Virus record (IMG/VR): IMGVR_UViG_3300042546_000155
Length of the DNA stretch: 64,000 nt
Direction: 5' to 3' (one strand)
Source: a virus
Below are positions 3,985-15,285 of the stretch, piece by piece; within the stretch, counting starts at the first letter, position 1, and every line of letters starts with the position of its first letter. The notes under the pieces were generated by a model. The model was given only the letters and a program-made list of their open reading frames with translations. It was not told the DNA's origin and searched no databases. The translations under genes and the position numbers were made by a program.

Positions 3985-4581
3985 TTATACGGGATGATGA
4001 AATATGGTACGAGGTTTTTCGATTCCTGTCAAGAGCAAACTGACTTCCTTATTCAGTTCAGCCAGAGTGCCGTTGTTGAAGACGGTATAATCAGGAAAGA
4101 TATCAGTCCATGCGGTCTCCGATATGTGCATCTTTGCAAGTTCTTCGGTGCTAGGATATTTACCTCTAGAAACATGAATTATCTTGCCGCCGACACTCCG
4201 GATAAAATCGATTTCATTCGGGAAGCGGCAATCGGAGATAACAACATCTTCATAACCATGGATACGCTTCTCTAAGGCAGCAATCCATATGTTATCAGCA
4301 ATGCCATGGCGACAAGCTTCGGTACCAAACTTTTGTAGAATGAGACGAGGAGTTACCTCGTATCCTAGCTTATGTGACCACCATGGATCAACAGTCTCAC
4401 GAAAGGTCCGTGAGGCATTACTATCACCTTCTAGAAGGCCCCGTGGCCACATAAAGATTGTGGCAACGGCATCCTTTAGAGCATCAGCAAAGGCAAACTT
4501 TCTATAGCCGTGATCTTTAACGAGAAGATCGGCTACGGTGCCCTTGCCGGATCCGATAAACCCGACAAGGCCGATAATCAT
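3985..4581 (-). CDS. gp1: Deoxynucleoside monophosphate kinase
   Basis: IIGLVGFIGSGKGT P-loop, FADALKD, TPRLILQKFGTE, ISDCRFPNE, HISE. Confidence 0.93.
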   Translation of the reverse strand: MIIGLVGFIGSGKGTVADLLVKDHGYRKFAFADALKDAVATIFMWPRGLLEGDSNASRTFRETVDPWWSHKLGYEVTPRLILQKFGTEACRHGIADNIWIAALEKRIHGYEDVVISDCRFPNEIDFIRSVGGKIIHVSRGKYPSTEELAKMHISETAWTDIFPDYTVFNNGTLAELNKEVSLLLTGIEKPRTIFHHPV

Positions 4582-5384
4582 CGCAAAGCACCTGTAAGAG
4601 CGGCGACGGCTGGTAGATCACCCTGGAACGCATATGTTCCAACATGTGTAGTCTTCATCCATGGGCATAGCCAAACCTTGATGCCAATAGCACGAGCATT
4701 CTGACAGAACATATAGTCCTCCGATAGATAGCGGTGTGATTGTGGGTCGATGACTGTATCAAAGTAGGCGTGAATGTAGCGAGTACCATCAAAGTTGGCC
4801 TGACCGATATGATCTGGCTTATAGTTCAACTCTGGATACTTTTCAGCATAAGTATCAAACACTTCACGCTTTACCATCATGAAGCCGGTACCAATCTCCA
4901 TAACTTCAACTGGCTCGGTAACTCTGAATGACTTAGTACCAGGAACTGGATTGAAAACGAAGTCACCGGTGACCTGATCTAGCTCATTAGGATTGAAGCC
5001 TTCCTTGTCAGCATGGTTCTTAACTGCATTGACAATGTTAGCCCAATTGATTGTCTTCTTAGGATATGGACCACCAATGATATCACGATCCATTGCTAGA
5101 AGGGCGATAACATCTTGTGGATTGAACTGAATGTCGGCGTCGATAAACAACATATGAGTGCAACCAGAACGAAGAAATTCATCAACGAGATAGTTTCTGG
5201 CACGGGTGATTAGAGATTCATTGAAGATGAATGAGAAGCGACACTCCACGCCATACTGAATGCACAGCCCTTGAAGGTCTAAACATGCTTTGGCATAAAG
5301 TCCTGTGCAAACACCACCGTAGCAGGGGGTGGCGATAAACAACTTTCTCTTTCTCAATTCATCTGTTGTAATTTTAATTTCCAT
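4578..5384 (-). CDS. GT-A fold glycosyltransferase-like protein
   Basis: IATPCYGG, ESLITRARN, MLFIDADI (DxD), GTGFMM, YLSEDYMFC; GGAGA RBS before ATG 5384. Confidence 0.7.
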   Translation of the reverse strand: MEIKITTDELRKRKLFIATPCYGGVCTGLYAKACLDLQGLCIQYGVECRFSFIFNESLITRARNYLVDEFLRSGCTHMLFIDADIQFNPQDVIALLAMDRDIIGGPYPKKTINWANIVNAVKNHADKEGFNPNELDQVTGDFVFNPVPGTKSFRVTEPVEVMEIGTGFMMVKREVFDTYAEKYPELNYKPDHIGQANFDGTRYIHAYFDTVIDPQSHRYLSEDYMFCQNARAIGIKVWLCPWMKTTHVGTYAFQGDLPAVAALTGALR

Positions 5385-5401
5385 AATGTTCTCCATACAC
5401 G

Positions 5402-5433
5402 AAAAGCGTGGAGCCCAAAAAGGCACCACGCTT
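5402..5433 (-). terminator. Stem-loop, probable intrinsic terminator
   Basis: Minus strand AAGCGTGG-TGCC-TTTTT-GGGCT-CCACGCTT-TTC, downstream of the HTH gene. Confidence 0.55.
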
Positions 5434-5456: not shown

Positions 5457-5678
5457 TTAGTTAGCAAGGCGATAGAAAGCGGTGCGCTTGCCATTGACCT
5501 TACGCCAATTGGTATAGATGGTGTAATGCTCACGAAGATCGTAAACTCGCTTGGCAACTGCCTCATATGGCACACGAGCCATGCGGGCAATAGAAGCGGC
5601 AGTAATGCCTGGACCAGTGTTATGGTTTAGCAGGGCGGTTTCAATCTTCTCAATCTGAGTCTTACGGGGTGTAGCCAT
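5457..5678 (-). CDS. Small winged-HTH-like DNA/RNA-binding protein
   Basis: Basic 73 aa: GITAASIARMARVPYEAVAKRVYDLRE...AFYRL; GGAGA RBS. Confidence 0.65.
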   Translation of the reverse strand: MATPRKTQIEKIETALLNHNTGPGITAASIARMARVPYEAVAKRVYDLREHYTIYTNWRKVNGKRTAFYRLAN

Positions 5679-5702: not shown

Positions 5703-5770
5703 TGGTGTTGGTGGTCGTGAAAGGAAAGGACCCGTGTATAACCACCAACACCATTTTATTATACACGGGT
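5703..5770 (-). ncRNA. Candidate H-type pseudoknot RNA element with anti-RBS loop
   Basis: Interleaved perfect inverted repeats: 5730-5740 with 5760-5770 (11 bp) and 5703-5715 with 5741-5753 (13 bp). Minus-strand loop 5716-5729 reads CCUUUCCUUUCACG. Confidence 0.6.
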
Positions 5771-5783
5771 ATTCTTATATTAC

Positions 5784-6971
5784 TTAGAAAGCAACTTCCG
5801 CAGTAACATCGGGAGTCGCCTGTTCAGCCACAGGAGCCGGGTCAATCGTCTCATCGACTTTCTTATACAGTTCCATGAAGGCATTCTTAGTATCCACATC
5901 GAAACGGTTCAGACAAAGTTCAATTGCTTTCACTTTGTTCTGACCAAAGATTGCATAAGCCTCGCAGATATGAACGAGACGACGGGTAGAGATAATCTCG
6001 GACAAAGCACCTTCATAGAAGGACTTGCGAATAACATCTGCCCAAGTGACCATCTTATCAACAAAGTCGGTGTTAGAAACACCAGAAGCATTGAGGACAT
6101 TGTTGAGGATTTTAGCCTCAACTTTAGCAGACGGATATTCTTGTTCCATTGTAATGCTGAAACGCTCAAGGAACGCTTCGTTCATAACATTGGTGCCGAT
6201 GAAACGGCCGTCATCAGAACCCTTACCCTTAGTGTTTGCAGTTGCAATCACATTGAAGCCAGGAGCAGGATGAACAACACGATTGGTCTTTTTAAGATAA
6301 ACAGCCTTGCCTTCAAGGACAGGCTGAAGGCACATCATCTTATTAGAACCAAGATCCACTTCGTCAAGAAGGAGAACGGCACCACGAGTCATGGCAGTAA
6401 CAACAGGTCCGTCCTGCCAGACAGTTTCACCGTTAACAAGGCGGAAGCCACCGATCAAATCATCTTCGTCGGTTTCAATAGTAATATTGACACGGACACA
6501 TTCACGCTTTTCATTAGCGCAAACCTGTTCGACCATCATAGTCTTGCCGTTGCCAGAAAGACCAGTAATGTAAGCGGGATAAAACTTACGAGACTTGATA
6601 ATAGCACGAACATCAGGGAAGTTGCCAAACGGGACATAGCCAGTTGCCTTTTCAGGCACAAGCGACATTTCAGCATTATGCGAAAGAACAGACGGAGCAA
6701 CCATAGCAACTGCTACAGTCGGCTCAACGGGAGCCACAACCTTAGCAGGCTTAGAAACAACCTTAGCGGCAGTTTCAGAACCATGCTCGGTGATTGCATA
6801 AAGACCACGACCGAGACGGCGGTCAGCATCATTCAAGAACCAATGAGGCCAAGCGAGATTATACTTTTCAGTAACCTCTTTAACCTGGGCACGAGTGATT
6901 TCACGGATAGCACCAAACTCAAAACGCACCTTGTCGAAAAACTCGGTACGAGCAGCAGCAACCTTAGTCAT
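5784..6971 (-). CDS. MoxR/CobS-like AAA+ ATPase
   Basis: GLSGNGKT, LLLDEVD, ATANTKGKG, NEAFLERF, ISTRRL. True start is probably ATG 6971, after GAAAGGAA. Confidence 0.9.
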   Translation of the reverse strand: MTKVAAARTEFFDKVRFEFGAIREITRAQVKEVTEKYNLAWPHWFLNDADRRLGRGLYAITEHGSETAAKVVSKPAKVVAPVEPTVAVAMVAPSVLSHNAEMSLVPEKATGYVPFGNFPDVRAIIKSRKFYPAYITGLSGNGKTMMVEQVCANEKRECVRVNITIETDEDDLIGGFRLVNGETVWQDGPVVTAMTRGAVLLLDEVDLGSNKMMCLQPVLEGKAVYLKKTNRVVHPAPGFNVIATANTKGKGSDDGRFIGTNVMNEAFLERFSITMEQEYPSAKVEAKILNNVLNASGVSNTDFVDKMVTWADVIRKSFYEGALSEIISTRRLVHICEAYAIFGQNKVKAIELCLNRFDVDTKNAFMELYKKVDETIDPAPVAEQATPDVTAEVAF

Positions 6972-7004
6972 ATGAGTTCCTTTCACAATTCTCATTATGC
7001 ATAT

Positions 7005-7033
7005 ATTATAGCGGAAGGAAGGGCTTTTGTCAA
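7005..7033 (-). promoter_or_regulatory. sigma70-type early promoter for the AAA+ gene
   Basis: TTGACA (7033-7028), 17-nt spacer, TATAAT (7010-7005). Confidence 0.85.
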
Positions 7034-7041
7034 GCCCCTCC

Positions 7042-7054
7042 TAAGTGTTTGATT
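7042..7054 (-). promoter_or_regulatory. IHF-consensus-like site
   Basis: AATCAAACACTTA matches WATCAANNNNTTR; 8 nt upstream of the -35 box. Confidence 0.5.
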
Positions 7055-9238
7055 TTACGCTACTTTCTTGGAATGACCAGCAATCCGTTCCACAAACTGG
7101 CGCAAAAGAACACGGTTTACCGTCTTTTTCTGGGCAAACTTGGAGAAAGCGGAAGCCATCTTTTTGACGGTCATTTTCTTATCACCGGAGTTATCGATTT
7201 CCAGATTGTTCTCCGTGTCTTTCATGGCAGAGGTGTTGATGATATAATACTCATCATAGCCCGCACTCTTGACAGGATAGTATTTGTTGTCACTCCAGTA
7301 TTTACGAGCCTTCGTAAAGGCATCGGGATTGCCATTAGAGATACCATACTCGTTATCAATACGCTTGAAGTTATTGTAGTCGTAAAGAAAGAAGCCGACG
7401 AGATTGCAGCCGGTGCTATCTTTTAGAATACGCAGCAGCGTATTGGTGTTTTCACGAGTGGCACTCCAATGATGAGGATACCAATCGTAAGTCTTATTGG
7501 TGATCGGATCGACATAGAAATAACGAGTGTTATGCCCCTTTGTAAAGTTGCGAGGTTCGTTGGAGTTTTCAATACCAGCAGAACCATTCGACTCGCCATC
7601 GGTGAGCCAAACAACATTCGTGATTTCCAGCTTGTTACGAGTCGTAAACTCACGGATGACCTTGGGTGCAATCATGATTGCATCATTAAGCGGGGTACCG
7701 CCCATTGTGTCACTCGCAAGATAATGACCCATACCAGCAGCCCAAAGGAACGACATTGCGAAATTCATTTCCTGAATGTTCATTCGGGAAGAGAGGAAGT
7801 TGCGCAATACCAAGCGGGAGCCTTTAATCACATTCTGCTTACCGATGTAAGAGAACGGATTATCAGCACCAGAATCCTTGAAGCCATAGACCTCGAAAGG
7901 CACACCAATCTGCTTACAGAACAGGGTAAGCGAAAACAACTGCTTCAAAGTCTCTTGAAGGTTGTAATGCATAGAACCGGACCAGTCAATGAACATAACA
8001 AAGCCATGGTTCTTACCCTTAGGCGTAGTAGCAAGACGACGGAAGATATCGTCGTTATACTTGTAAGAATGAAGCTTGTTGGTGTCGATAACACCAGTCT
8101 TAGCCACATTGATACGAGCATAAAGTTCGGCAGCCTTACGCTGTTCAAACTCCTTGACCATGAAAGAGATTGTTTCTTTCTCTTTCATTTTCCACTGGGT
8201 CATAAGACGACGGCAATCATCAAATGCCGCATTGCTAAGAGGCGTAGCATAAGGCGACTTTTTATTGCCAGAAAGTTCATCACGCCAATCTTTGATAACG
8301 ACCTTATAGTCATTAACAGCCTTATCCCAATTGACATTAGGCATTGTCAGATAAACGAAAGTGGAGTTTTCGTTCTTAACAATTTCCTCAGACTTACGCT
8401 GCCAAGTTTCATCAGTCTCGGAGCGAGGAGCATTAGAAGGAGCCTCTGACTGACCAGCGCCCTTACCGAAGCCACCAGCACCCGAAGACTCGCCTTCGCT
8501 TCTTACACCCTGGCTTTTGCCGTTTTCATCTCCATCACCTTCATCACCATCAATTTCCTCATAATCAAGGTCGTCAAGATCAACATCATCATCACCTTCT
8601 CCTGCAATTAGGTCGATTTCCATTTCATTTTGTTCTTCGAGTTTCTTCTTACAATAGGCGTAAATTTCCTCAGTAAGAGAAACAACATCATCCCAAGTTT
8701 CAGCGTTTTCAACTTTCTTGAGAAGAACCTTTTCTTCGGAAGAGAAGGTAATATTCATATGCACATTACCACCCTTGAAATAGATATTCAAGCGGTCGAT
8801 AAAGTTCATTGAATTGATATCACGGTTAGCGGTACCGAAAAAGTCACGCTCAACCAGTTCTTTGTAGCCAGCAAGATAGTTGCGACGGCAGCCAGGATAA
8901 CGGCGCTTTTGACGCTTATCAATACGAGCATCCTCGATAACATTCAAGAAGCCTTGAACGGTACGACGGAGAGCCTCGGAGACTTTCTCACCAGGAAAAA
9001 TCTTAGCAGCAAGATCATCGGCAGTCTGCTTATAAACATCGGCAGACGGAGTATCAAGAGCATGACCAGTTTCATGAACCAGCAAAAGGTCCTCAAGGTC
9101 ATTAGAGATACCCTGCCAGATGGGCAGCATAAGGACACGGTTCTTAAGGTCAAACATAGCCGTCTTAAGCGCCGGGTTGCGCTGGACGGTGATGTTTTCC
9201 GTAGCGAGGAGTTTAGCAAGAAGCGACTTATCCGACAT
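7055..9238 (-). CDS. CobT-like protein: N-terminal HExxH metallopeptidase-like domain, acidic linker, C-terminal VWA domain
   Basis: HETGH, NVIEDARID, acidic linker, MIDAS DWSGS, GGTPL, WLTDGE. Start is probably ATG 9238. Confidence 0.85.
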   Translation of the reverse strand: MSDKSLLAKLLATENITVQRNPALKTAMFDLKNRVLMLPIWQGISNDLEDLLLVHETGHALDTPSADVYKQTADDLAAKIFPGEKVSEALRRTVQGFLNVIEDARIDKRQKRRYPGCRRNYLAGYKELVERDFFGTANRDINSMNFIDRLNIYFKGGNVHMNITFSSEEKVLLKKVENAETWDDVVSLTEEIYAYCKKKLEEQNEMEIDLIAGEGDDDVDLDDLDYEEIDGDEGDGDENGKSQGVRSEGESSGAGGFGKGAGQSEAPSNAPRSETDETWQRKSEEIVKNENSTFVYLTMPNVNWDKAVNDYKVVIKDWRDELSGNKKSPYATPLSNAAFDDCRRLMTQWKMKEKETISFMVKEFEQRKAAELYARINVAKTGVIDTNKLHSYKYNDDIFRRLATTPKGKNHGFVMFIDWSGSMHYNLQETLKQLFSLTLFCKQIGVPFEVYGFKDSGADNPFSYIGKQNVIKGSRLVLRNFLSSRMNIQEMNFAMSFLWAAGMGHYLASDTMGGTPLNDAIMIAPKVIREFTTRNKLEITNVVWLTDGESNGSAGIENSNEPRNFTKGHNTRYFYVDPITNKTYDWYPHHWSATRENTNTLLRILKDSTGCNLVGFFLYDYNNFKRIDNEYGISNGNPDAFTKARKYWSDNKYYPVKSAGYDEYYIINTSAMKDTENNLEIDNSGDKKMTVKKMASAFSKFAQKKTVNRVLLRQFVERIAGHSKKVA

Positions 9239-9263
9239 ATGTGTTCCTTTCACGATTTTCATA

Positions 9264-9292
9264 AGTATAGCAAATCAGGCCGGGTTTGTCAA
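9264..9292 (-). promoter_or_regulatory. sigma70-type early promoter for the VWA gene
   Basis: TTGACA (9292-9287), 17-nt spacer, TATACT (9269-9264). Confidence 0.85.
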
Positions 9293-9445: not shown

Positions 9446-11062
9446 TCATTTAACCTTTCTGAAAACGAAAACGGGTTCATATTTCAGCATGATCTTTTTG
9501 CCATTGTTTTCAATCTGACAAAAGTTTTTCATCTTGCCTTCAAGGATGACTTCCGTTTCTTCTTCGCCGGTAATAGGGTTGATTGTTACCTTTTCACCAG
9601 TCTCAACCATTCTGTTTCCGCCCGGCATTTGAGCAAGAGCCATCTTTAGAGTTCCGACATATTCCATTCCCAACTCTTTTAATATATTACAGGAATCTTC
9701 CTCTAATGTCAATAGCTTCCCATCAAATGCAGCATCAGCAATGTTCCAAAGAAGATAACGATCCGGTCGTAGGTAGCTAACGGCAGTCTCCAGAGTAGGT
9801 CGTAGAAAACCATCAACCCAATCCTCATATTGCGAAAACTTGTGACAAGATTGTTCGGGATCATCCGAATAGACCTCTTTTGCAAAATAAGGTGGTGAAG
9901 TGAACACCATATCAAGCTTGCCCTTATACTTTTGAAAGCCAGGCTGAAACTGTGCTACCTCAGACCCACACTGAAAAATCTCATATGTGTGTGACTTAGG
10001 GAACAGACTGCCATTCTCTCTTACATTCTCATTGAAGAAATCTGCCACTTCATGGTACTTAGTGCGACCAGGAGTAGTGTTATGGTCTGTATTAGGATCA
10101 GTACCAATGTAATGAATCGTTCTCTTGTCATCTACAGACATAGCTCCTACGATACGACCTGCCCAACCACTAGAAGGATCCCAAATGTTGATTACATCTT
10201 GATCCTTGATATGATCAGTGAAACGCTCATAAAGATAACGAGCGGTGAGTGGTGGATAGTTCACCGCATACTGACAGAAAGACACTCTAAATGATTTAAG
10301 ACCTAGAGGGAATATCTTCTGTCCTAGTTTGAATAGACGAATGGTGTATGCATTGGTCTTGTTACGATCAACATTGGTGCGACAACGCTCTGGTACCTTA
10401 TCAGCATAATCAGCGTCCACAATCACATTCTGTTTCTTGCCTAGAGTAGCAGAATAGCCTGTGTAAACCTTATCTTCTTTGATAGGGCAAAGCCAGTAGT
10501 CCCAACCTTCTTTGTCTTTCATAAACTCAATAAACTGGTCAGCAGACTCAACATGATATGGAATGTTGTTTATGCGTCCGGTATCACCAATGCTAATAGG
10601 ATTGGAATAATGGTAAAAAGAGTCACGCTTAAAGTGTCTAGAGGCATAAGTAACGAAGGTGTCCAGATAGTCATCATCAGCAAAATAATCATAGATCGAC
10701 TTAGCCTTGCCTTTTGTTGAATATGAAATGCCCGTCTTCATCATGGTAGGGAACCATTGATTGACAGCATTGCCTACTACAGAGGTGTTACGAATAACAT
10801 CTTTCTCACCTGTGCGAAGGTCGAGCGTTTCAAACTCATGAACTGGAAATGAAACCATCTTCTGAAAGTTATCAACTATACCATCTTTGGTAAAACCCAC
10901 ACGAGGAGGAATGCCTTCTTCATCCCATAAGCGCACAACCTCTTTACGCATATCAATGACCCACTGACGAAACTCATCATTGGTCATCCATAGCAGTTCT
11001 TCAAATGTCTTATTGACAGGAGAGTTTAGTAACTGGTCATTGCGTTCATAAAACCATTGCAT
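9446..11062 (-). CDS. SAM-dependent amino-methyltransferase (N4C/N6A-type DNA MTase-like)
   Basis: WDPSSGWAGR (SAM-binding motif I), YIGTDPN, FTSPPYF (motif IV), YEPVFVFRK. Confidence 0.8.
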   Translation of the reverse strand: MQWFYERNDQLLNSPVNKTFEELLWMTNDEFRQWVIDMRKEVVRLWDEEGIPPRVGFTKDGIVDNFQKMVSFPVHEFETLDLRTGEKDVIRNTSVVGNAVNQWFPTMMKTGISYSTKGKAKSIYDYFADDDYLDTFVTYASRHFKRDSFYHYSNPISIGDTGRINNIPYHVESADQFIEFMKDKEGWDYWLCPIKEDKVYTGYSATLGKKQNVIVDADYADKVPERCRTNVDRNKTNAYTIRLFKLGQKIFPLGLKSFRVSFCQYAVNYPPLTARYLYERFTDHIKDQDVINIWDPSSGWAGRIVGAMSVDDKRTIHYIGTDPNTDHNTTPGRTKYHEVADFFNENVRENGSLFPKSHTYEIFQCGSEVAQFQPGFQKYKGKLDMVFTSPPYFAKEVYSDDPEQSCHKFSQYEDWVDGFLRPTLETAVSYLRPDRYLLWNIADAAFDGKLLTLEEDSCNILKELGMEYVGTLKMALAQMPGGNRMVETGEKVTINPITGEEETEVILEGKMKNFCQIENNGKKIMLKYEPVFVFRKVK

Positions 11063-12023
11063 TTAGCATTCCTTCAAACTGTGCATAATATTGGTCAGGC
11101 GTCTTGAGGACGGTAAAAAGTTTGTTCTCAATTTCTTCGAAGTGATCAATATACTCTAAACTGTGATACTTGTCAAGATACTCATCGAATGATCTTACCC
11201 TCTGCCAATCGGTAGCGACAAAGGTTTTATCTTCGTCATAGTTATCCCAGACAAAGGGAAAGATGCCACATGCAACGGCTTCAACATATCTTGAGGTTGT
11301 TGCTTTAGGATCCATCCAGTTAAAGCATAATGTGGACCGTGAAAGCAATAGAGTAGGAAGAATGTCTTTCATCTTACCCCATCTTTGGTCTCTCTTGAAA
11401 CCATGAAAACGACCAATGAACCATGTATCAAGGTCGCTCTTATGAATCTGTTTTAGAATTGTATGGCGCTGGTCGCCTGATAGCTTACCATCAATTGTCT
11501 TGCGCTTGTCCGAACCCCAATATACAAAGTCAATCGTCTTCTCATCATGAGGGAAAAGAAAACTATGGTTCTTGATGAAACGATATTTCATACCATGAAC
11601 ATTACCAAAGTCACATTCATCAATCGTCTCATATGTAATGTTCATATTAGGGAAGACTTTAGTTCTGTATAGTTCTTCATCGTCACGGCGATCTGACCGT
11701 AGAATGATGACCTTCTTGCCTTCAAAGTATGGTTTGATTGTCTCAAGATGCTCATTAGATCGTTTCAAATCTAATGTGTGAATAGCACCAGGGATCCAAT
11801 AAGTGAACTCTGCTTCACTGGGTATGATGATAATGTCTGCATTTTTGATTGCTTCTGGTTCACGACGAGGCTTCATGTTGAAACCGAAATTGTAATAATA
11901 CCATTCATGCTCAGGATGATTGCGCACATACAACTTTAGCAACTCAAAGAATGAGTCCATGATATGTTCCAACGGAACGATATAGTTAGCCGAAGAACGG
12001 AGACGACAAATACAAATCTTCAT
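11046..12023 (-). CDS. GT-B fold glycosyltransferase, T4 beta-glucosyltransferase-like
   Basis: MKICICR N-terminal strand, IDFVYWGSDKR, T.RYVEAVACG..PFV...YD. Start at 12023 via ATGA overlap. Confidence 0.6.
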   Translation of the reverse strand: MKICICRLRSSANYIVPLEHIMDSFFELLKLYVRNHPEHEWYYYNFGFNMKPRREPEAIKNADIIIIPSEAEFTYWIPGAIHTLDLKRSNEHLETIKPYFEGKKVIILRSDRRDDEELYRTKVFPNMNITYETIDECDFGNVHGMKYRFIKNHSFLFPHDEKTIDFVYWGSDKRKTIDGKLSGDQRHTILKQIHKSDLDTWFIGRFHGFKRDQRWGKMKDILPTLLLSRSTLCFNWMDPKATTSRYVEAVACGIFPFVWDNYDEDKTFVATDWQRVRSFDEYLDKYHSLEYIDHFEEIENKLFTVLKTPDQYYAQFEGMLNAMVL

Positions 12024-12826
12024 CCTGCTACATTCCATACCAGACAAGGCTCTTTTCGGGAGTGTCCTTCGTGATATTCTTTCATGACATGCCATACCTT
12101 TGCATCATAGGTAGGTGCAGAAGGATAAGGCGGTGTATGTTCTTTCTTCACTGGCTTGTCAAACTTGTATGGCGACTTGTGCAGTATGGCACGCCCGATT
12201 TCTCTAGGGCCCATTGTATGTCCTACAGATACCACATGAACTTCTGCATCAGGCCATGCAAGTTGCAATGCTCTCGTTAGAGTGCCAGATGATCCTACGG
12301 ACCAGACCTCTTTGGGAGAAACCGCAATAGAACGAGCAACACGAATAATACAAGCAATCGAGGTAGGGTGTTCAACACCAATTGGAAGTAATGCTCTTTC
12401 GTCAGGCAATTCTGCAACATAGTCTTTAGCCCTCTTTTGCGTAACCGGAAGCATACCGTTCGGGACCCAATGATATTCACCGCCAAGTTCAATGCCACGC
12501 TTTTGATACTCATGTAATTTATCCATCGATCTTTCTGCCATAAAGATTACGGCTTTTTTGTTATAACGATTGCAAATGAAGGGGAGGGAGATTTGAGCAT
12601 AGCCAGTTGCAGGCGATGATCCATACACCCACTCTTTTATGTTTGCATATTCAGTCGCATGACCAATAAGATAGTCACCGGCTCTCGCCTTAGAACCAAC
12701 AGAAAGAAGGTCATCACGAACAACATGATAACCTTCGTGTTCTACAATCACTGGTGCAGGATTGGGATCAACCCAATTGCCGATTAGGCTTAGATAGTCT
12801 TCTGCTGTTTCATTGTATAGCGTCAT
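12020..12826 (-). CDS. PLP-dependent enzyme (fold type II, ACC deaminase/D-cysteine desulfhydrase-like)
   Basis: VVRDDLL..GSKAR (PLP lysine), VGSSGT phosphate loop, PTYDAK, WNVAG. Confidence 0.8.
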   Translation of the reverse strand: MTLYNETAEDYLSLIGNWVDPNPAPVIVEHEGYHVVRDDLLSVGSKARAGDYLIGHATEYANIKEWVYGSSPATGYAQISLPFICNRYNKKAVIFMAERSMDKLHEYQKRGIELGGEYHWVPNGMLPVTQKRAKDYVAELPDERALLPIGVEHPTSIACIIRVARSIAVSPKEVWSVGSSGTLTRALQLAWPDAEVHVVSVGHTMGPREIGRAILHKSPYKFDKPVKKEHTPPYPSAPTYDAKVWHVMKEYHEGHSRKEPCLVWNVAG

Positions 12827-13198: not shown

Positions 13199-13437
13199 TA
13201 GTGAAATGCTCCTGTTTTGATTAGGCCAGAGACATAGATTAAAGTAATCACCAACTGGATTATGATTAACGACCACTTACGCCATGATAGAGCAACAACA
13301 AGCCATCCTAGATTACCTGCCATTGATAGATAGACATTAAGCGGGTATATGTTTACAGAGGTTAAATAGGCACCACACAATAGAATTGCTGTTGATGCCC
13401 ACTCAAATACAAACTCAACTTGCTTCGGCACAGACAT
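13198..13437 (-). CDS. Small 3-TM membrane protein (PnuC/SemiSWEET-like half unit)
   Basis: EWASTAILLCGAYLTS..YPLN...GNLGWLVVALSWRKWSL; three hydrophobic helices. Confidence 0.6.
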   Translation of the reverse strand: MSVPKQVEFVFEWASTAILLCGAYLTSVNIYPLNVYLSMAGNLGWLVVALSWRKWSLIIIQLVITLIYVSGLIKTGAFH

Positions 13438-13525
13438 TTACATCACCCATTTGCGAGAGTCCGGTCCACAGATTATCTATGTTATAGGTATAATACCCAA
13501 AGGGAGTATTAACAATGGTAATCAT
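13415..13525 (-). CDS. Small hypothetical protein (36 aa)
   Basis: MITIVNTPFGYYTYNIDNLWTGLSQMGDVNVCAEAS, preceded by a GAAAGGAA RBS. Confidence 0.4.
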   Translation of the reverse strand: MITIVNTPFGYYTYNIDNLWTGLSQMGDVNVCAEAS

Positions 13526-13560
13526 ATCGATTCCTTTCATTGATGATCTATCATAGATGA

Positions 13561-15285
13561 TCAACCCTCTTTTGTCAAGGTGCTAAAGTTCTTTACCTTC
13601 TCAAACTTGATAGTTCTTTCAAATCTATCAATCATTGTGTCCTTATGGGAAATGACAAACACATTAGTTCCTTCATGTCCGATATCCCACATGATACGGA
13701 TAAACTCATCAATACCGCTAGAGTCCATAGCACGATCTAGTATCTCATCGAACACAAGGATATTGACATTGACACTATTCTTTAGTTTGGCAATCTGTCG
13801 CCATGTTAGAAGAATAGCAAGGTCAATTCTTAACTTCTCTCCTTCTGAGAAATTGTGGTATGAGAACTCGTCTCGGTATCTAGACTTGATAGATTCTTCG
13901 AATGACTCATTGATATTAAAGTTGACGAAGAAGCCAAGTTTTGCAAGATACTTGTTGATGTGTTTGTTAATGATGGGTAGATACTGCTTAATGATCTTAG
14001 TTTTGATTCCACCATCTTTGAGTAGAGTAGTAGCGAGGTCGATGTATTGACGCTCATCTAAAAGGGTCTCCTTCTCCTTTTGGAGGGTGGAAATATCATG
14101 TTGCACTGTTTCAAGTTGTCGTTCTGACTCTTGGGTGGTTTTATCTGACCCAGAGAAGGATTCAATCTGCTCAACAACTTGGCGCAGATTATTAGCAATA
14201 TTGTTATAGGAAGACTTAGCAGATGCCAAGTCCATCTTAAGGATGTTGATGTTAGTAAGGATCTTTTCAATCTCATCGATTTCCGTTAGAACCGAGTCAA
14301 TCTGCTTTTCAACTTTATTTAGTCCGTCGGAAAGTTCATTGATCTTAACATCATTATCTTCGATCATCTTTTTTGAAAACTCAGGATCAATATCCTGACG
14401 ACAAGTCGGACATGTGCCTGTAGCTGCAAAGAAGTCAATGTCTTTGACATACTTATCACGATTAGCTTCCATCTTTGCTCTGAAAGATAGTAGCTTAGAA
14501 TGCTTAGACTTAAAAGGTGATAGATCAAGATCCTTTTCAAGAGCCTTCTCTAGCAAGACTTGACGATTAGCCACACCTTGCTTTTCAATAGCAACCTGTT
14601 CCTCTAGGCCCTGCTTCTTTGCTTCTAGTTCTCTTAGCTTTTCTTCACTGTTGGCCTTGAGTGAAGCGAGAGTCTTTTCGATATAAGACTTGTTTTCATC
14701 CTTAGATGTTAGAATGACACGGTTCTTCTCCAAACCTTCACGATTAGCCTGTAGTCTATTCTTAACCACGGTTGACATGGCTGTAAAGATTTGAATGTCT
14801 AGAAGGTCTTCAATAACTGCACGGCGATCATTAGCTGATAGCTGCATGAATGGAACGAACGATGCCGAGCCGAGGATGACCACCTGTGTAAAGGACTTGA
14901 AGTTCATCTTAAGGATATGCTTCTCAAGATATTCTTGATAATCCTTCGCAGCGGCATCTTGATTCAACATGACACCATCACAATAGATTTGAAAGAGATT
15001 TGGTTTTGCACCACGAACAACTTTATATCTTTTGTTGTTTATGGAAAACTCAATCTCAACCTCACAGTTCTTATTGTTGATAGAGTTTACAACATTACCC
15101 TTGTTCACCTTACGAAAAGGCTTACCGAATAGCACAAAAGTCAATGCGTCGAGGAAGGTTGACTTCCCCGACCCATTGTGGCCCATGATTAGAGTATTCT
15201 TGTGCGTATCTAGTTCAATTTCTGTCCATACATTACCTGCGGACAGAAAATTCTTCCACTTGACATAATGAAAAGTTATCATCAA
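13561..15285 (-). CDS. gp46: Recombination endonuclease subunit (Rad50/SbcC-like)
   Basis: [22 protein letters not shown] zinc hook, FSEGEK signature, VFDEILD, VISH. Confidence 0.97.

Follow-up and report, generated by a model that had tools for sequence, protein, structure and literature searches.

The translation of hok mRNA and of IS10 transposase mRNA is limited by fold-back inhibition, in which a distal part of the mRNA pairs with its own translation start. Here we describe a leader element of an uncultured T4-like phage that may act in a comparable way. It differs from hok and IS10 in that these belong to a toxin and a transposase context, and have no pseudoknot-framed seed common to several leaders.

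The leader of gene 32 in phages T4, T2 and RB69 contains a pseudoknot, and in T4 RNase E cuts just 5' of it; a 2010 review gave this as the only leader pseudoknot known in T4-type phages (PMC3014915). Like it, the element described here is an H-type pseudoknot in a 5' leader of a T4-type phage, placed before an A/U-rich stretch and the ribosome binding site (RBS) (PMC3014915), and it has a conserved GAAU at the position of the RNase E cut. It differs in preceding a gene for a winged-helix protein rather than gp32, in having stems of 11 and 13 bp, and in showing no sequence match to the gene 32 leader. Moreover, one of its stems uses promoter sequence, and its loop is antisense to the starts of other genes.

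In the repZ leader of ColIb-P9, formation of a pseudoknot and antisense pairing compete (PMC8383071). The likeness is that a leader hairpin loop pairs either locally, as a pseudoknot, or with another RNA, through long helices (PMC8383071, PMC4829277), and this fits those relatives of our element (type A, below) whose loop matches both a local segment and the start of an AAA+ gene. However, the competitor of repZ is a counter-transcribed RNA and the leader is its target, whereas the phage loop is itself the proposed antisense agent, acting on the start of an upstream mRNA. RydC likewise offers a short seed to an mRNA leader from a compact pseudoknot (PMC8383071), but it is a free sRNA of bacteria, which stabilises and so activates cfa, while the phage element lies within an mRNA and its seed covers the Shine–Dalgarno (SD) sequence. 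T4 RegB inactivates early mRNAs post-transcriptionally at a common SD class (PMC3014915); it is a nuclease cutting GGAG, whereas the agent proposed here is an RNA pairing to GUGAAAGG. Finally, natural RNA knot candidates have been sought as two interleaved helices of at least 10 bp (PMC4829277), and the element has helices of 11 and 13 bp, both conserved, within 68 nt.

By analogy, therefore, the element resembles known antisense and fold-back regulators in its likely action and the gene 32 operator in its position, and it belongs to no curated family. As in base-pairing antisense RNAs, a conserved seed lies in a single-stranded loop and is complementary to a translation start. We consider it on balance probable, from the sequence comparisons below, that the element serves as an antisense shut-off of the AAA+ gene and secondarily of a VWA-type gene and other early leaders, in cis or in trans.

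The locus and the architecture of the pseudoknot

The virus record is complete (174,499 bp) and includes the window, i.e. the whole stretch of 64,000 nucleotides analysed here. The T4-like affiliation is indicated by gp46, gp45, clamp loader, DsbA and RegA genes near the module. The nearest cultured relatives are distant pelagiphages and cyanophages, the AAA+ protein matching that of pelagiphage Mosig at 54%. The local genes are all on the minus strand, and run from the VWA-type gene through the AAA+ gene and the element to a 73-aa ORF:

13415..13578, minus strand: sigma-70 promoter and 36-aa ORF, with a 9-nt seed match at 13531-13539
9239..9292, minus strand: VWA sigma-70 promoter (11/12) and leader, with a seed target at 9244-9255 over the SD
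7055..9238, minus strand: CobT-like 'peptidase' (VWA-type) partner gene, 727 aa
6972..7033, minus strand: AAA+ sigma-70 promoter (12/12) and short leader, with a seed target at 6977-6988 over the SD
5784..6971, minus strand: MoxR/CobS-like AAA+ ATPase gene, 395 aa from the ATG at 6971
5457..5678, minus strand: 73-aa winged-helix protein gene, with its SD (GGAG) at about 5691-5688
5395..5432, minus strand: GC-rich hairpin followed by Ts, 3' of the winged-helix gene, terminator-like by eye

This last hairpin was not called in the terminator scan. Another GC-rich hairpin, at 7014-7045 of the window, follows directly after the VWA stop and has TTGACA in its loop; relatives keep it with different arms, and it is probably the 3' stem of the VWA mRNA, serving also as the AAA+ promoter. 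A palindrome at 13530-13560 spans the -10 of the 36-aa ORF promoter. The genes that flank the module (3985-5429 and 9446-12826) specify a 283-aa protein with a weak Anp1 hit, a dNMP kinase, a 538-aa protein of which one segment is methylase-like, and a product resembling threonine dehydratase; they possibly form a DNA-modification locus. Outside the window there is a cluster of 25 tRNA genes (genome C1:154601-159192). In Mosig the VWA-AAA+ pair is present, and is followed by annotated short ORFs and rpS21 rather than by the element and the winged-helix gene.

The 73-aa protein is predicted to adopt a winged-helix fold (pLDDT 88), with TFE, MarR and others as neighbours, most of which are DNA-binding regulators. 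It has no Pfam match. The gene is present in a single copy in the genome, and in the Atlas clusters the family is restricted to viruses; a search of 50,697 phage records with a type A homologue found no match. A kinship with the N-terminal segment of the AAA+ protein was considered and rejected, as there is no similarity. In one relative (L076:5357-5791) a tandem duplication has given a 144-aa protein with two winged-helix domains.

The element and the promoter that overlaps it consist of the following parts:

5771..5776, minus strand: A-rich AAGAAT, immediately 5' of stem S1
5770-5760, pairing with 5740-5730, minus strand: 5' and 3' arms of S1, 11 bp
5759-5754, minus strand: loop L1, 6 nt, which varies among relatives
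5758..5763, minus strand: -10 box TATAAT of the winged-helix sigma-70 promoter
5753-5741, pairing with 5715-5703, minus strand: 5' and 3' arms of stem S2, 13 bp
5729-5716, minus strand: loop L3, the seed, antisense to GUGAAAGGAA leaders

A preliminary description, made from the letters of the window, had reported two perfect interleaved stems of 11 and 13 bp with a zero-nucleotide junction, and this is correct at every coordinate. Among interleaved perfect stems of at least 9 bp, the element is the sole instance in the 174,499-bp genome, in which no second copy of the RNA or of the protein was found. The S2 hairpin has a calculated folding energy of -20.5 kcal/mol, and S1 alone of -14.3 kcal/mol. 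When only the S2 hairpin forms, the CC of the seed is bound by the GGG in the 3' arm of S1, and opening of the seed costs 4.55 kcal/mol. By our own geometric estimate, the 6-nt L1 is too short to follow the groove of a 13-bp helix, which suggests that the stems are partly formed, alternating or threaded.

The same description regarded the element as a free 3'-end RNA. The operon, however, continues through the winged-helix gene, and the pseudoknot is the 5' leader of that gene, located upstream of the RBS with 25 nt between the end of S2 and the winged-helix ATG. All 126 true copies of the element are found directly before a winged-helix start, at a distance of at most 90 nt. This is so even in locus L032, where another gene has been inserted after AAA+, and the constancy of the arrangement identifies the element as the leader of the winged-helix gene. 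On read-through RNA it is also the 3' region of the AAA+ message. The layout of an independent trans-encoded sRNA was not found in the window, where the -35 is degenerate and no terminator directly follows S2. A processed form of the element could possibly occur as a separate sRNA, and AAGAAT, of which GAA is invariant across 26 related leaders, is a possible candidate for the processing site. S1 is unlikely to be an intrinsic terminator: its U tract is interrupted, the scan did not call it, and type C leaders have no U tract.

Two features had been missed: the identity of the element as the winged-helix 5' leader, and the overlap of the S1 5' arm with the TATAAT box. This arm (5760..5770) comprises promoter spacer and the first four bases of the -10 box, upstream of the expected start site; the 3' arm (5730..5740) is complementary to the promoter spacer/-10, and the 5' arm of S2 starts at approximately the predicted +1. 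An RNA form of S1 is thus confined to transcripts begun at the AAA+ or VWA promoter, and RNA from the winged-helix promoter, which would start at about the S2 5' arm, could form only the S2 hairpin. The promoter is intact as TTGACA-17-TATAAT in many relatives, and the -35 is TTGACA-like (5/6 or better) in 15/33 seed carriers. In 18/33 it has decayed, with S1 and the -10 kept. These include the present phage, in which the degenerate -35 position (5786-5781) overlaps the AAA+ stop.

Complementarity between the seed and early gene starts

Leaders drawn from IMG/VR and metagenome loci gave 105 distinct sequences: 33 of type B (window-like), 61 of type A and 11 of type C. Most type A leaders have a hairpin of 10-17 bp, of many different sequences, whose loop pairs with a segment immediately upstream of the SD (about 6 bp; mean 6.2 bp, vs 4.7 bp with permuted partners); a few have no clear structure. 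Extensive compensatory change is seen in the 100 nt before the winged-helix ATG at L049, L055, L168, L179 and about 55 other loci. As in the type B seed, CAC is the final trinucleotide of many type A loops, immediately ahead of the 3' arm. Type C is nested within type B on the AAA+ tree and retains S1 and a short S2, its seed slot being filled by a few bases or by a tRNA-Gly-like gene with a 6-nt anticodon loop. This gene lies between the 3' arms of S1 and S2 (L041:5311-5382, L040:2347-2418 and L098:398-469; also in L021, L025 and L191). It has G1-C72, U73 and CCA, ARAGORN assigns it no anticodon, and it is possibly a non-ribosomal glycyl donor. The close relatives L210 and L211 have a different leader, with neither S1 nor the seed, and one copy has lost the GGAG SD.

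Rfam 15 was searched with the window, with the element at E up to 10, and with nine relatives spanning all three leader types, and none of these searches gave a hit. A literature search, mostly of open papers, found no description of the element. As judged from its conservation, this family of about 105 leaders, most of them shorter pseudoknots, is a real conserved RNA that lies outside every curated family.

As had been described, the seed has a 12/12 match to the VWA leader (9244-9255); its 12/12 match to the AAA+ leader (6977-6988) includes one G-U pair. In the AAA+ leader a weak hairpin carries the target as its loop. The genome has three copies of GTGAAAGGAA, located in the loop (as complement), the VWA leader and the AAA+ leader, against 0.25-0.5 expected on the coding strand. 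Duplex energies are -17.9 kcal/mol for VWA, -15.8 for AAA+ and -8.8 for the winged-helix gene's own start, and in a ranking of 358 starts VWA is 2nd and AAA+ 6th. Further sigma-70-led ORFs of this genome also rank high as seed partners, and a small class of early leaders could be co-targets. The existence of such a class had been proposed, and other sigma-70 early leaders with GTGAAAGGA are indeed present in the genome and its relatives: among four extra sites examined, three lie at SD distance behind TTGAC promoters, as does the VWA site of L030. The 9/9 match at 13531-13539 is real and sits at the SD of the 36-aa ORF, behind a sigma-70 promoter, but the number of 9-nt matches (3 on the coding strand, 1.6-2.8 expected) is within chance and not significant alone. 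With a predicted energy of -11.3 kcal/mol, the start of this ORF is possibly a weak target.

Every type B locus with a readable AAA+ start has GTGAAAGG there (23/23), compared with 5/10 close relatives without the seed, and each of the four changes of this sequence on the tree falls outside the carriers. The VWA target is kept in 16/19 carriers vs 0/6 without the seed. Both upstream genes named as targets in the preliminary description are thus matched, with AAA+ as the main one and VWA less constant. In L013 the loop and the leader have changed together (loop ...CACT, leader AGTG...). Inside the seed-target duplex of the carriers there is one case of two-sided variation, at the duplex edge. 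In the AAA+ leaders of carriers the target is often placed in the loop of a hairpin whose arms are interchangeable and vary from phage to phage (8/18 at p<0.05, vs 0/6). Nested folding, a model with no kissing interactions, did not predict the seed-target duplex against the intact hairpin.

A different pairing is found in distant relatives. There a GGTCAC loop in type A leaders accompanies TGACC between the SD and AUG of AAA+ in 8/9 cases, vs 0/37. This match is up to 11 nt long and in most cases equals or exceeds the local partner in length. Own-locus pairing compared with permuted pairing gives p=0.002 for AAA+ and p=0.71 for the VWA control. L048, a sister of L223, has neither the GGTCAC loop nor the target. 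When AAA+ starts were scanned for GTGACC, the five distinct loci recovered were all known carriers of the GGTCAC loop and added no contrasts.

Phylogenetically independent contrasts were counted on quick and FastTree AAA+ trees, leaving out L173 and L217 as long branches. They number one for type B carriers against non-carriers, and for GGTCAC two to three on supported branches and five on all branches; all have the same direction, and none is significant by sign test. The association between loop and leader in relatives, in line with the preliminary description, is strong, but the contrasts are too few to reach significance. Taken together, the comparative evidence for antisense control of AAA+ is good, but not conclusive.

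The strongest alternative is that the pseudoknot is a cis-acting leader only, controlling or stabilising the winged-helix mRNA, for example as an autogenous operator, and that the match to the upstream RBS is the relic of an inverted leader copy. The invariable position before the winged-helix start, L032 included, is what this would predict, and the T4 gene 32 pseudoknot occupies an equivalent position (PMC3014915). In type A the local pseudoknot adjoins the winged-helix SD, and a match to the AAA+ start is missing in 37/46 leaders of this type, which implies that antisense targeting is not the universal job of the family. In addition, GTGAAAGG is older than the seed, being found in L047, L211 and some type C loci, and the loop may thus have arisen by copying of the leader. 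A purely local role is nevertheless hard to reconcile with the conservation of the seed (99.4% by column), which exceeds that of L1 (83%) and of the S2 5' arm (88%), while its pairing to its own start is weak. Nor would such a role explain why the target relaxes where the seed is missing, or why a different, second seed matches AAA+ starts; and the fold neighbours of the winged-helix protein are mostly DNA-binding regulators. We regard this alternative as unlikely, but as one to be taken seriously.

It is improbable that the loop is a general anti-SD decoy, mimicking the 3' tail of 16S rRNA and titrating an AAAGGA class of SDs that includes host mRNAs. The loop does hold two CCUUU registers, and AAAGGA is found at 41/358 starts and GAAAGGA at 14/358, several of them behind sigma-70 promoters. 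It also bears a likeness to a proteobacterial 16S tail. However, the loop is invariant beyond the SD as well (UCAC/GUGA), the sequence matched by the type A seed lies between SD and AUG and is not part of an SD, and GTGAAAGGA is rare, with three occurrences per carrier genome including the loop, and none in a type C non-carrier genome.

Covariation, strand and promoter overlap

Covariation was analysed in 26 distinct related leaders. In this set 98.2% of cells are paired, with 41 two-sided cells, although kinship among the sequences means that cells overcount events; 0/500 shuffles reach that level, and controls in slid registers pair at 24-52%. Two-sided changes occur at eight pairs, namely seven of the 13 in S2 and one in S1 (C-G in 18 leaders, U-A in 8). 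When inner one-sided changes are read on the minus strand, ten give G-U and one gives A-C, which indicates that the element works as a minus-strand RNA. Covariation in both stems had been put forward as a check, and it is found: on this comparative evidence, both stems are selected as a minus-strand RNA structure.

All three leader types retain a helix involving the spacer or the -10 of the winged-helix promoter. In type A winged-helix promoters (e.g. L049, L181 and L229) the TTGACA-TATAAT spacer contains a palindrome of at least 6 bp in 27/28, with differing sequences. A DNA operator for the winged-helix protein is unlikely, because the recognition helix is conserved whereas neither the sequence nor the spacing of the palindromes is constant. 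The idea that all early promoters overlap hairpins was also rejected, as the genome's other promoters show no excess (6.7 vs 6.4).

These observations would also suit an effect at the level of DNA, directed at the promoter, in which an S1 hairpin or cruciform, or an RNA-DNA hybrid with the non-template strand, occludes the winged-helix promoter and the seed is secondary. The overlapping helix is common to the three types and absent as an excess from other promoters, the type A spacers are palindromic, and in types B and C the -10 region has its pairing partner downstream. Furthermore, no clear strand bias is seen in the promoter helix of types A and C (G-U 11 and A-C 7; G-U 4 and A-C 6). On the other hand, the inner S1 changes in carriers give five G-U and no A-C on the minus strand, S1 survives loss of the -35, and both the covariation of S2 and the seed are left unaccounted for. 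We judge such a mechanism, too, to be improbable. That the element is a plus-strand RNA whose loop is an RBS decoy, an option raised in the preliminary description, is very improbable indeed: S2 folds nearly equally well on that strand (-27.4 vs -27.8 kcal/mol), but the inner wobble pairs favour the minus strand by 10:1, the promoter scan found no plus-strand promoter near the element, and the surrounding genes are all on the minus strand.

A proposed mechanism of early-gene timing

We hypothesise that antisense shut-off of AAA+ would proceed as follows. Once polymerase passes the AAA+ stop, S1 would form, and would do so on upstream-started RNA only. S1 would draw the GGG out of the inner hairpin that would otherwise hide the seed, and S2 would frame the seed. 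The seed would then pair over 11-14 nt with the region of the AAA+ SD, either in trans or by folding back within one mRNA, and could also pair with VWA and a few other GUGAAAGGA early leaders. Ribosome loading would be blocked, giving a delayed, protein-free shut-off of AAA+ and VWA translation, while the winged-helix gene (SD GGAG, weak seed match) would stay translatable. In the GGTCAC leaders, pairing to AAA+ and the local pseudoknot would be in competition, and expression of the winged-helix gene could in this way be linked to AAA+ shut-off. The seed is probably derived from a loop in an ancestral leader pseudoknot, the partner of which was situated immediately downstream.

A fuller version of this scheme is offered tentatively, as a possibility that we hold to be rather doubtful: the timing of early genes would be set by an mRNA-embedded antisense pseudoknot licensed by read-through, separate lineages would have recruited different seeds to AAA+, and the RNA would be threaded or knotted when fully paired. 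Within the licensing reading, the building of S1 from the promoter sequence of the downstream gene would mean that only upstream-started RNA exposes the seed.

How the early phase ends in T4-like phages of the cyanophage and pelagiphage kind is poorly understood, and in a survey of pelagimyophages the prediction of middle and late promoters proved impossible (PMC7029224). The family of about 105 leaders, which has no match in Rfam, adds a second kind of leader pseudoknot to the T4-type phages. If the antisense reading is true, a seed lying over the RBS of the widespread, unexplained CobS/CobT-like AAA+/VWA pair would constitute a protein-free timing device.
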